The translations under genes and the position numbers were made by a program. From a virus (taxonomy: Duplodnaviria; Heunggongvirae; Uroviricota; Caudoviricetes), in IMG/VR virus record IMGVR_UViG_2534682096_000007: 26,892 nt of DNA; one strand, 5' to 3'. Below are positions 2,866-4,421 of the stretch, in pieces (positions within the stretch are counted from its first letter, which is position 1; every line of letters starts with the position of its first letter). Under the pieces are notes generated by a model. It was not told where the DNA came from, did not search any database, and saw only the letters and a program-made list of their open reading frames with translations.

Positions 2866-3081
2866 ATGAAATCCATGGATAAGTTAACAACGGGCATCGC
2901 CTACAGCACCTCTGCAGGCAGTGCTGGCTACTGGTTTTTACAGTTGCTCGATAAAGTCACGCCCTCACAGTGGGCGGCAATAGGTGTATTGGGTAGTCTG
3001 GTATTTGGCATGCTGACGTATCTGACAAATCTTTATTTCAAGATTAAAGAAGACAGGCGTAAGGCTGCGAGAGGAGAGTAA
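2866..3081 (+). CDS. class II holin / pinholin of the phage 21 S21 (EssQ/EssD) type, with dual-start motif
   Basis: 71 aa; RBS GGAGGTGAGG 2854-2863. Starts MKSMDK, i.e. Met1-Lys-x-Met4 dual start as in antiholin/holin pairs. Two hydrophobic segments ([19 protein letters not shown]; [21 protein letters not shown]) and charged C-terminus [13 protein letters not shown]. The ORF-track extension back to 2782 is rejected. Confidence 0.9.
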
Positions 3082-3085
3082 TCCA

Positions 3086-3397
3086 ATGACTCAAGACTAT
3101 GAACTGGTTGTGAAAGGAGTCCGTAATTTTGAGAATAAAGTTACGGTAACTGTAGCCTTACAGGACAAAGAACGCTTTGACGGTGAAATTTTTGGCCTGG
3201 ATGTCGCCATGGACCGTGTTGAAGGAGCTGCGCTGGAGTTTTATGAGGCAGCAGCCAGAATGAGCGTCCGGCAAGTCTTCCTGGAAGTAGCAGAAAAATT
3301 GTCAGAAAAAGTTGAGTCTTATCTGCAGCATCAGTACTCCTTTAAGATTGAAAATCCTGCCAATAAGCACGAGCGTCCTCATCATAAATATCTATGA
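3086..3397 (+). CDS. ydfR: DUF1327 family protein (YdfR-like) within the lysis cassette
   Basis: 103 aa, placed between holin and endolysin exactly as ydfR sits between essQ and rrrQ in the K-12 Qin prophage. Its stop overlaps the endolysin start (ATGA at 3394-3397). Function unknown. Family call is by size and synteny from memory. Confidence 0.6.
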   Translation: MTQDYELVVKGVRNFENKVTVTVALQDKERFDGEIFGLDVAMDRVEGAALEFYEAAARMSVRQVFLEVAEKLSEKVESYLQHQYSFKIENPANKHERPHHKYL

Positions 3398-3927
3398 ACA
3401 CAAAAATCAGATACGGCCTGTCGGCTGCCGTTCTGGCGCTGATTGGTGCTGGCGCATCTGCTCCTCAGATACTTGACCAGTTTCTGGACGAAAAAGAAGG
3501 TAACCACACAATGGCATACCGCGATGGTTCTGGCATATGGACCATCTGTCGGGGTGCCACAGTGGTGGATGGAAAAAACGTTTTTCCCAATATGAAACTG
3601 TCGAAGGAAAAATGCGACCAGGTCAACGCCATTGAGCGTGATAAGGCGCTGGCATGGGTGGAGCGCAATATAAAAGTTCCACTGACCGAGCCACAGAAAG
3701 CCGGTATCGCGTCATTCTGTCCCTATAACATTGGCCCTGGTAAGTGTTTTCCGTCGACGTTTTATAAGCGGCTTAATGCCGGTGATCGTAAAGGCGCATG
3801 CGAGGCGATTCGCTGGTGGATAAAGGACGGTGGACGTGATTGCCGCATTCGTTCAAATAATTGTTACGGTCAGGTTATTCGTCGTGACCAGGAGAGTGCA
3901 TTAACCTGCTGGGGGATAGAACAGTGA
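3394..3927 (+). CDS. SAR endolysin (T4-lysozyme-like muramidase, GH24; R21/RrrQ type)
   Basis: 177 aa. N-terminal weakly hydrophobic Gly/Ala-rich signal-anchor-release segment [19 protein letters not shown]. Catalytic E-x8-D-x5-T arrangement in [20 protein letters not shown]. Follows a pinholin, the usual partner of SAR endolysins. Confidence 0.9.
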
Positions 3928-4421
3928 ATCAGATATTCACGGTGATTTTGCTCGTGTTGGTAGGATTTGTCGTAGGTAATGTCTGGAGCGACAGAGGATG
4001 GCAAAAAAAATGGGCGGAGCGTGATGCTGCCGAATTATCTCAAGAGGTAAATGTCCAATTTGCTGCTCGAATAATTGAACAGGGGCGAAGTATATCCCGT
4101 GATGAGGCTGTTAAAGATGCACAACAGAAAGCCGCTGAAATTTCTGCCAGGGCTGCTGATCTGTCTGATAGTGTTAACCAGCTGCGTGCCGAAGCAACAA
4201 AATATGCCATACGCCTTGACGCAGCGCAGCATACCGCAAATCTTGCCGCTGCCGTCAGAGGCAAAACAACCAAAGCCGCCGAAGGAATGCTCACCAACAT
4301 GCTCGGAGATATTGCAGCAGAAGCTCAGCTTTATGCTGAAATTGCTGACAAACGCTACATCGCAGGAGTGACTTGTCAACGGATTTATGAATCTTTAAGA
4401 GATAAAAAATATCAGATGTAG
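3924..4421 (+). CDS. Rz-like inner-membrane spanin (i-spanin)
   Basis: 165 aa. GTG start at 3924 overlaps the endolysin stop. N-terminal TM segment [15 protein letters not shown] followed by a long charged, helix-prone periplasmic domain. Contains a complete embedded ORF in another frame (Rz1). Confidence 0.8.
4117..4371 (+). CDS. Rz1-like outer-membrane lipoprotein spanin (o-spanin), embedded inside the Rz gene in a different frame
   Basis: Signal peptide with lipobox ([22 protein letters not shown]|C) followed by a Pro-rich mature region ([19 protein letters not shown]). GAGG at 4105-4108 precedes ATG 4117; an alternative ATG lies at 4102. Lies entirely inside Rz (3924-4421). Confidence 0.75.

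Follow-up and report, generated by a model that had tools for sequence, protein, structure and literature searches.

The gene ydfR (DUF1327), which lies between the holin and endolysin genes of a prophage lysis cassette, is best understood as an optional, moron-like accessory gene whose product is made late and directed at the host, and which, by taking over the Shine–Dalgarno (SD) sequence at the end of the holin gene, probably couples translation of the endolysin to its own. We put the probability of this reading at about 0.7. The cassette occupies positions 2866–4421 of the window, by which we mean the whole 26,892-nucleotide stretch of viral DNA that was analyzed, and its features, together with one just upstream, are as follows.

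2744–2775, + strand: terminator-like hairpin with T-run (7-bp stem, 5 GC pairs, then TTTTTCTTTTT); a pattern match only
2866–3081, + strand: S21-type class II pinholin, 71 aa (PF04971, MKSM start, composition of the transmembrane domains)
3086–3397, + strand: ydfR/DUF1327, 103 aa (PF07041, E = 1.1e-51)
3394–3927, + strand: SAR endolysin of the RrrQ/933W-R type, 177 aa (PF00959, R21 alignment, catalytic triad)
3924–4421, + strand: i-spanin Rz (rzpQ), GTG start, N-terminal transmembrane domain (DUF2514, phrog_312)
4117–4371, + strand: o-spanin Rz1 (rzoQ), wholly within Rz in the +1 frame, lipobox LTSC

The genes are tightly spaced, with one 4-nt gap and two 4-nt overlaps, and they are real genes rather than chance open reading frames, as judged from Pfam E-values of 1e-24 to 1e-52, from the recovery of the 1.8-kb cassette, with ≥80% of its length covered, from 2094 of 5426 complete Escherichia coli genomes, and from a dN/dS of about 0.2–0.45 in the DUF1327 core. 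In all, complete genomes of this species hold 15,828 cassette copies. The cassette is also already known; annotated RefSeq genomes (essD/ydfR/rrrQ/rzpQ) match it with 100% identity, it is orthologous to essQ-ydfR-rrrQ-rzpQ/rzoQ of the E. coli K-12 Qin prophage, and its components fit the model of pinholin and SAR endolysin drawn up for phage 21. Among deposited phages, Tritos and HannyBb carry the same cassette (97–100% identical), and mEp460 and BP-4795 carry related versions. Alignment with K-12 Qin, where cspI comes next after the cassette, gives 94.2% DNA identity over 1665 nt, with the same genes, order, lengths and overlaps. The encoded proteins are 90–99% identical overall: 65 of 71 residues match in the holin (EssQ), 101 of 103 in YdfR, 176 of 177 in the endolysin (RrrQ), 148 of 165 in Rz (RzpQ) and 80 of 84 in Rz1 (RzoQ), the holin and Rz being the ones that diverge by 8–10%. 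GC content is 0.44 in ydfR, compared with 0.47 in the holin, 0.50 in the endolysin and 0.46 in Rz.

The surroundings of the two cassettes differ. K-12 Qin is a cryptic prophage, whereas the prophage here, which is Qin-like and lambdoid and whose late lysis cassette this region forms, retains structural genes from terminase to tail (terminase, portal, capsid and tail genes). Upstream of the holin, cspB is found in K-12 Qin, whereas here there is a low-GC AraC-like gene with the hairpin at 2744–2775 between it and the holin; Q-antiterminated late transcription would need to read through this hairpin. In an Rfam search of positions 1–8000 of the window, the sole match was a cspA thermoregulator upstream of cspI.

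Family searches place the holin in PF04971 ('P21 holin S'), with E = 2.3e-34 and a score of 117.6 bits where the cutoff is 26, and they also give a match to a phrog holin. Its N-terminus, MKSMDK, places Met1 and Met4 behind a single strong SD (dG −10.8) in the Met1-Lys2-x-Met4 arrangement of dual-start holins, in which the antiholin has one extra positive charge; by analogy, the 71-aa form starting at Met1 would be the antiholin equivalent and the 68-aa form starting at Met4 (position 2875) the holin equivalent. RNA structure around the dual start is insignificant (z −1.16). In a crude hydropathy test, the protein has the two-transmembrane-domain pattern with a charged C-terminal tail: TMD1 (residues 8–27) is 60% Gly/Ala/Ser/Thr and falls under the hydropathy threshold, and TMD2 (about residues 35–57) is strongly hydrophobic (KD15 peak 2.0), so that the second segment, the lack of which the original prediction had named as a possible refutation, is predicted to be present. 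Pinholins form small heptameric pinholes and support only SAR endolysins, and the S21-68/71 pinholin and SAR endolysin pathway has been reviewed.(PMC9636201)

The endolysin has just such a character. It matches PF00959 (E = 6e-24) and aligns over residues 9–174 with full-length R21 (PDB 3hde; E = 1e-16), SAR region included; a sequence check gives the catalytic triad E35-x8-D44-x5-T50; and residues 8–24 are 65% Gly/Ala/Ser, which, as read from the sequence, makes an uncleaved, weakly hydrophobic SAR segment. Since residues 1–30 hold no Cys, we infer refolding control of the R21 type as opposed to the disulfide caging of P1 Lyz. Likeness to phage 21 (S21/R21/Rz/Rz1) and to DLP12 essD-rrrD thus extends from the PF04971 pinholin and its MKSM dual start through the E35/D44/T50 SAR endolysin and its Cys-free SAR segment to a two-component spanin. 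The endolysin shares, however, no more than about 33% identity with the type that directly follows near-identical holins, which we take as the R21/RrrD type; in cassettes of that type the endolysin comes directly after the holin and there is no DUF1327.

The endolysin stop is joined to the Rz start by the second overlap (GTGA, 3924–3927). Rz belongs by its family matches (DUF2514, E = 4e-38; phrog_312, annotated 'Rz-like spanin', E = 4e-58) to the i-spanins, in which an N-terminal transmembrane domain is combined with a periplasmic helical domain, and its hydropathy maximum (3.0) lies at residues 4–18. Rz1 lies entirely inside Rz, has a lipobox (LTS-C) and a mature part rich in Pro, could alternatively start at 4102, and matches phrog_11621 at 2e-8; the RefSeq annotation of an identical genome leaves it out. 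In other words, the original prediction of a Qin-type cassette with a dual-start pinholin, a SAR endolysin and an embedded Rz1 is borne out in gene order, in coordinates and in motifs.

The lysis mechanism is established for phage 21 and is carried over to this cassette by homology. The Q-antiterminated late transcript would yield the pinholin in two forms, the Met1 antiholin and the Met4 holin; the weakly hydrophobic TMD1 would then exit the membrane, small pinholes would form, and the proton-motive force would collapse. This collapse would free the membrane-tethered SAR endolysin to refold and cleave murein, after which Rz/Rz1 would disrupt the outer membrane.

What, then, does YdfR contribute; is it a lysis protein by function or only by address? 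The protein consists of a conserved acidic 72-aa core (pI 4.6) and a variable 31-aa tail, and it has no hydrophobic segment, transmembrane segment or signal peptide, suggesting that it is cytoplasmic. An AF2 model built on an alignment of 25 sequences that included distant homologues (pLDDT 81.7) predicts three beta strands and a long helix for the core; an earlier run on a shallow alignment of 14 sequences was unusable (pLDDT 49). Structure comparison returned no significant relative of the DUF1327 fold and so gives no hint of function, and a profile search of PDB sequences returned nothing (E at least 0.48). A dsRBD-like core was considered and rejected, there being no significant alpha-beta-beta-beta-alpha match with a basic surface. 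The acidic core argues against direct RNA binding by YdfR. The alignment of all DUF1327 homologues was too divergent for scanning, and a profile scan of genome contigs with the distant-homologue alignment found nothing.

What connects YdfR with lysis is its position. In Escherichia, DUF1327 is found at the holin|endolysin junction in 80 of 80 close viral loci, where the endolysin is without exception of the RrrQ type and not of the R21 type; every Escherichia locus examined has it fixed directly 3′ of the pinholin after a 4-nt gap; and it overlaps the endolysin start. With so invariable a position a role linked to lysis is conceivable, and one could propose on these grounds that DUF1327 is a dedicated lysis regulator, acting either as a cytoplasmic antiholin or on RrrQ-type SAR endolysins, that is made in stoichiometric amounts with them and tunes lysis timing. 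Cytoplasmic antiholins such as T4 RIII and P1 LydB (see also PMC9636201), which work in this manner, are likewise small soluble proteins encoded beside a holin gene. Unlike what this comparison leads one to expect, however, the distribution of DUF1327 is tied to no holin, and DUF1327 is not co-inherited with the lysis genes as an antiholin or dedicated regulator should be, because the holin and endolysin that accompany it are also found in its absence and its core occurs at sites outside lysis cassettes.

For example, holins 93–100% identical to that of the window are followed either by DUF1327 and an RrrQ-type lysin or by an R21-type lysin alone, and the same DUF1327 allele stands behind two different holin alleles (phage Evi and locus L006). 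The 933W-like Stx2a phages (Stx2a_F765) have the same holin family, the same post-holin junction (GGAGAGTAA + 4 nt + ATG) and an endolysin of the same type (about 90% identical), and they function without DUF1327, the RrrQ-type lysin following the holin directly after the 4 nt; they differ further in an antirepressor gene between R and Rz. Among Stx2a-converting phage records with this endolysin type, DUF1327 is present in only 2 of 124, and among all phage records with this lysin type in only 100 of 462; the majority of the Stx1a and Stx2c phage records that were examined do have it, as do about 40% of the complete genomes of E. coli. Homologous cores also lie between tail genes M and L (locus L090, for which a megablast against phages gave no match), after tail gene gpI (L107), just downstream of the antiterminator gene Q with a GH19-containing gene following (L111), with HicAB on one side and a holin_8/holin_3_7 cassette on the other (L110), and behind the Rz-like gene of a GH108 cassette in Cronobacter (L100), which is to say at tail-gene and post-Q sites and beside unrelated holin and endolysin types. 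Even the coupling to the endolysin varies; spacing ranges from −4 to +448 nt, and the gaps of 50–448 nt in other alleles mean that it is not conserved. The lysis-timing role that had been suggested for DUF1327 is thus unsupported, and we regard a dedicated lysis regulator as unlikely. Absence of the gene from close relatives without a lysis phenotype had been named as evidence against that role; the functional 933W-like phages lack the gene, but a search of IMG/VR found no exact essQ-rrrQ deletion junction with a Qin-type endolysin N-terminus.

In the preferred reading, that of an accessory gene, ydfR bears on lysis through the SD. The 3′ end of the holin gene (GAGAGGAGAGTAA) bears the SD of whichever gene comes next. 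In 933W-like Stx2a phages it is the endolysin that uses this holin-embedded SD (dG −8.5 in Stx2a_F765, and −8.2 for the post-holin endolysin of N15), whereas here it serves ydfR (−9.5), and the endolysin is left without an SD (anti-SD dG +1.1). The ATGA overlap (3394–3397) between the ydfR stop and the endolysin start, also noted in the original prediction, is real, and, with the SD taken by ydfR, translation of the endolysin probably depends on termination-reinitiation there. The coupling would then be a cis effect of ydfR on lysis. Carrying this reasoning further, one might view ydfR as functionless filler, kept only to deliver ribosomes to the SD-less endolysin start, and the highly variable C-terminal tail and the common alleles in which a frameshift gives 94 or 129 aa would fit such a view. 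We find it highly improbable, however, as the dN/dS of the core indicates selection as a protein, conservation of the core extends to homologues only about 30% identical, in places where coupling plays no part, and YdfR binds RNase E specifically.(PMC13232886)

This binding is the only experimental lead on the activity of YdfR. Bacterial two-hybrid and overexpression co-purification data from 2026 place the contact in the catalytic, N-terminal half of RNase E, and on the YdfR side they map it to residues 1–72, which are exactly the conserved core; YdfR also co-purifies with RNA, ydfR is silent in K-12 at standard growth, and overproduction changes few transcripts.(PMC13232886) The view that DUF1327 is uncharacterized therefore holds in part, RNase E binding having since been reported. 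An envelope phenotype has been attributed at second hand to Paradis-Bleau 2014, the main text of which does not mention ydfR. We consider it most likely that the protein's own activity is host-directed and late-expressed. Other phage proteins bind RNase E, among them T4 Srd, T7 gp0.7 and phiKZ Dip. As a small phage-encoded protein that contacts RNase E, YdfR may be likened to them. The contact of YdfR is with the catalytic half.(PMC13232886)

A further set of observations concerns a neighbor. In every locus examined that is not of the Escherichia type, and in phage Evi and loci L006 and L007, a small ORF in convergent orientation, in most cases a member of the phrog_25324 family, comes after the DUF1327 core. 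This partner is 58–65% identical across insertion sites and in phage Evi, where it lies at L087:1577–1873 on the minus strand and has its own terminator-like hairpin. The pair sits at several late-region sites, including M|L, after gpI, downstream of Q, the holin|endolysin junction and positions beside lysis cassettes of unrelated type; in Escherichia lambdoids it is the holin|endolysin junction that is occupied, and the partner has usually been lost. The partner ORF also stands beside unrelated ORFs of 93–95 aa at H|M and near J. These ORFs (Serratia and other loci) were considered as hidden DUF1327 members and set aside, any relationship being undetectable (E about 0.2–0.5).

Such pairing with different ORFs suggests a modular system, and DUF1327 might be one half of a convergent module, be it a defense, exclusion or toxin–antidote pair, with the window copy an orphan remnant. 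We think this quite doubtful: PADLOC, NCBIfam and Pfam searches of DUF1327 and the partner ORFs gave no informative match, and most Escherichia copies have no partner and yet keep an intact core under purifying selection. Nor was toxicity reported upon YdfR overproduction, growth arrest being seen with YegJ only.(PMC13232886) In a broader proposal, DUF1327 and a partner of the phrog_25324 type would make up a mobile cassette of two convergent genes, DUF1327 being the half on the late strand, that hops from one intergenic junction to another in the late regions of siphophages. The DUF1327 core would modulate the RNase E catalytic domain and so late or host mRNA decay, and in Qin-type cassettes the gene would also have been co-opted as an upstream cistron to meter translation of the SD-less endolysin. 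We offer this only tentatively, as a possibility on the improbable side.

Treating ydfR as an accessory gene also places it near a familiar class. Lambdoid-phage morons include lambda bor and lom and HK97 gp15. With these, ydfR shares presence/absence polymorphism between otherwise collinear phage genomes and insertion between genes of a late operon. In contrast to them, ydfR is without its own promoter or terminator; no match to either was found inside 3081–3397, and the 4-nt gap upstream and 4-nt overlap downstream leave no room for them, so that ydfR is moron-like rather than a strict moron.

The useful outcome is in part a negative one: position within the cassette is no evidence that ydfR is a lysis gene. 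For those who wish to delete ydfR, it follows from the SD-less endolysin that polarity must be controlled for. Should the RNase E finding also apply when the prophage is induced, YdfR would be a lambdoid-phage factor acting against the host's main mRNA-decay enzyme and, if so, it would be of relevance to Stx1a and Stx2c phages, in which the stability of late transcripts also bears on toxin expression.

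The lysis cassette at 2866-4421 lies in E. coli DNA, and the genes around it mark a Qin-like lambdoid prophage, with dicB, ydfD, hokD, rem, ydfU and the Q antiterminator upstream and cspI, ynfN and gnsB downstream, followed by terminase, portal, capsid and tail genes, structural genes that K-12 Qin has not retained. The family assignments of the cassette genes are unambiguous, and the anatomy and open reading frames are exactly as the original prediction described them, including coordinates, MKSM start, ATGA overlap, catalytic triad and embedded Rz1.

Genes of the lysis cassette (window positions)
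2866-3081: holin, 71 aa, begins MKSMDK; PF04971 'P21 holin S', 2e-34
3086-3397: DUF1327 (ydfR), 103 aa; PF07041, 1e-51
3394-3927: endolysin, 177 aa; PF00959 lysozyme, 6e-24
3924-4421: Rz, GTG start; DUF2514 and phrog 'Rz-like spanin', 4e-58
4117-4371: Rz1, inside Rz in the +1 frame, lipobox LTSC; phrog Rz-like spanin, 2e-8

Packing is tight, with one 4-nt gap and two overlaps, ATGA and GTGA. Several RefSeq chromosomes match bases 2700-4500 at 100% identity and name the genes essD, ydfR, rrrQ and rzpQ, and the cassette DNA is 94.2% identical to K-12 MG1655 Qin across 1665 nt (protein identities: EssQ 65/71, YdfR 101/103, RrrQ 176/177, RzpQ 148/165, RzoQ 80/84). As an orthologue of K-12 Qin that is identical to annotated genomes, the cassette is therefore an already known entity. 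The o-spanin gene at 4117-4371, annotated as rzoQ in K-12, is unannotated in the 100%-identical RefSeq NZ_AP022215. Directly downstream of the cassette, an Rfam cspA thermoregulator match (RF01766, 4627-5044, plus strand, 109 bits, E=6e-28) takes in both the 5' leader and the coding part of cspI (4783-4998). A cargo block (1-2775) fills the stretch from the Q antiterminator, which lies just outside the window on its upstream side, to the holin; K-12 Qin has cspF/cspB in this place. The block carries a lipocalin-family gene on the minus strand, a YbgA-family gene and an AraC-type HTH gene (1962-2675) of very low GC (33%) that ends in a terminator-like hairpin at 2744-2765.

The holin has the hallmarks of S21: a Met1-Lys2-Ser3-Met4 dual start with one strong Shine-Dalgarno sequence (SD; dG -10.8), a TMD1 that is 60% Gly/Ala/Ser/Thr, a firmly hydrophobic TMD2 and a charged C-terminal tail. 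The endolysin has an N-terminal segment that is 65% Gly/Ala/Ser and free of Cys, a catalytic triad E35-x8-D44-x5-T50, and an alignment of residues 9 to 174 to full-length R21 (PDB 3hde, E=1e-16) and also to RrrD (4zpu). The phage 21 pathway of pinholin, SAR endolysin and spanins serves as the model (PMC9636201); by family membership, the pinholin would build up and then trigger, its pinholes would depolarise the membrane, the SAR endolysin would be set free and refold, and the spanin complex would disrupt the outer membrane. Other alleles of the same pinholin, at L003:2281-2496, L085:1781-1996 and L087:1114-1329 (L-handles denote collected loci, with positions within the locus; L087 is phage Evi), start MYQMEK or MNQMEK, keeping both Met codons; position 2 is not Lys in these alleles, so the antiholin logic of S21-71, which depends on charge, may not hold for them.

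Is DUF1327 part of this lysis machinery? Among 80 viral contigs with a holin 93-100% identical to that of the window, the loci long enough to classify fall without exception into two classes: holin, DUF1327 and an RrrQ-type endolysin (at least 89% identical), or holin followed directly, with no DUF1327, by an endolysin that is only about 33% identical to RrrQ and that we take to be of R21/RrrD type. The 933W-like phage Stx2a_F765 carries an RrrQ-type endolysin without DUF1327 after a holin of the same family, at the same 'GGAGAGTAA + 4 nt + ATG' junction as in the window, and phage N15 carries such an endolysin without DUF1327 behind an unrelated holin. Across all deposited phages, 462 records have an RrrQ-type endolysin and 100 have DUF1327 (Stx1a-converting, 46 and 41; Stx2c-converting, 15 and 15; Stx2a-converting, 124 and 2). 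Judged by gene content, DUF1327 is thus missing from phages whose holin and endolysin are of the same types, an outcome of the sort that the original prediction named as refuting a lysis role. A role in lysis timing, which that prediction had raised, is unsupported: the gene is lacking in most such phages (2/124 Stx2a-converting records carry it), and its conserved core also occurs at non-lysis sites.

The family is tiny: 1.84 billion proteins yield 72 representatives at 50% identity, and the close type is confined to Escherichia and Shigella among 185,579 species-representative genomes, bar two MAG contigs. These two (L093, Veillonella parvula, product 97% identical to the E. coli type; L098, Bacillota, 81%) are probably misbinned E. 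coli prophage contigs. In the alignment a 72-aa core is conserved while C-terminal tails vary freely, giving alleles of 72, 103, 104, 114, 116 and 176 aa and, through frameshifts, also 94 and 129 aa; a rough Nei-Gojobori estimate over 72 codons puts core dN/dS at about 0.2-0.45, and the core is under purifying selection. The 129-aa and 94-aa alleles, frameshifted or truncated, turn up fairly often (protein cluster P0036 has 96 members and P0018 has 218); the 129-aa allele (L005:3221-3610) overlaps the endolysin gene by 83 nt in a different frame, with core residues 1-72 intact. The most divergent members are core-only (72-76 aa) and never sit at the holin/endolysin junction.

Core-only DUF1327 and convergent pairs (locus, position)
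L090, L091: core between lambda-like tail genes M and L
L107: core after tail gene I
L111: core immediately after antiterminator Q and before a gene that matches a GH19 domain
L110: core between a HicAB pair and a holin_8/holin_3_7/lysozyme/Rz cassette
L100: core within a GH108 cassette of Cronobacter, 3' to an Rz-like gene
L087:1334-1873 (phage Evi): DUF1327 core and convergent partner
L102:3501-4102, L103:2941-3538, L105:3501-4097: phrog_25324-type ORF and 93-95-aa ORF, in Serratia and Escherichia-like prophages

At each core-only locus (L090, L091, L100, L107, L110, L111) a small opposite-strand ORF lies within about 12-40 nt 3' of DUF1327. In L088, L090, L100 and L107-L111 it belongs to one family of unknown function (phrog_25324, ~99 aa), 58-65% identical to the ORF between DUF1327 and endolysin in Evi and L006/L007, an identity kept across five or more distinct insertion sites in late regions; the Evi copy carries a terminator-like hairpin of its own (1571-1552, minus strand). 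The family's 16 clusters come from E. coli, Cronobacter, Serratia and an Escherichia sp. isolate (ESNIH1). Because it is also convergent with unrelated 93-95-aa ORFs, not detectably DUF1327, at H|M (tape-measure/M) and near J, these pairings suggest a modular two-gene cassette with swappable halves. Different reverse ORFs accompany DUF1327 at L089, L091 and L012, and neither the window nor any of its close relatives (80/80) has a trace of the partner. At L012:3566-3908 (minus strand), the 343-nt spacer that separates a DUF1327 allele of 114 aa from the endolysin contains a further reverse ORF, ~80 aa long and unrelated to phrog_25324. The picture from these comparisons is of a mobile accessory unit that would have landed at several late-region junctions, the holin/endolysin junction being the site fixed in Escherichia lambdoids.

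What, then, might YdfR do? An AF2 model on a deeper alignment is confident (pLDDT 81.7) and predicts three antiparallel strands (residues 5-14, 18-27, 34-43), one long helix (50-89) and a disordered stretch of 12 residues at the end; no hydrophobic segment occurs along the protein. The earlier description of its role as uncharacterised is partly outdated. The only experimental lead is recent and comes from Gopel et al. (RNA Biol 2026, PMC13232886): their two-hybrid screen returned YdfR(1-72) on three occasions, the full-length protein also interacted with RNase E(1-597), RNase E(1-598) co-eluted with Strep-YdfR, and few transcripts changed on YdfR overproduction. The RNase E-interacting region is exactly the conserved core defined here. 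DNase-resistant nucleic acid was also pulled down with YdfR (PMC13232886); the acidity of the core (pI 4.6) speaks against its binding RNA directly. During standard growth of K-12, ydfR is essentially silent (PMC13232886), and such silence in a lysogen is consistent with transcription as part of the late operon rather than from a dedicated promoter. Additionally, ydfR is among the overexpressed genes that gave a 3-fold higher streptomycin MIC in a 2026 screen (PMC12924614). The most likely activity, in our view, is a protein-protein interaction directed at the host by a protein expressed late, RNase E being the leading candidate target; we give this a probability of roughly one in three.

The insertion may also matter for its neighbour. 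An SD within the last holin codons (GAGAGGAGAG or GGGGAGAG) serves whatever gene comes next, ydfR in the window (dG -9.5) and, for Stx2a_F765, the endolysin (dG -8.5). Where DUF1327 precedes it, the endolysin lacks an SD in every allele scored (window +1.1, BP-4795 +0.3, mEp460 -2.8, Evi +0.6; random window positions average -3.1), so insertion of the gene appears to deprive the endolysin of this signal. For the Qin-type allele, termination-reinitiation coupling could be provided by the ATGA overlap; alleles with 50-448-nt spacers have neither SD nor overlap at the endolysin start. Co-translation with the endolysin, as originally proposed, is therefore plausible for the window's allele but is not a conserved property of DUF1327 alleles. 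The spacer alleles listed below share a similar A/T-rich leader of ~45 nt before the endolysin (...GATAAAyCCTGATAAATATCC-ATG), in which GATAAA recurs as a short direct repeat; L067 has only the last ~15 nt in common.

Spacer alleles with the A/T-rich leader before an RrrQ-type endolysin start that has no SD
L003:2846-2895
L054:3572-3634
L012:3566-3908
L006:3440-3887

The new points are modest: a site-promiscuous DUF1327, often with a convergent partner; a core that coincides with a published RNase E-binding fragment; and an insertion that would cost the endolysin its SD. Mutations in ydfR that halt translation early are expected to be polar on the endolysin, and such polarity could pass for a lysis function of ydfR.
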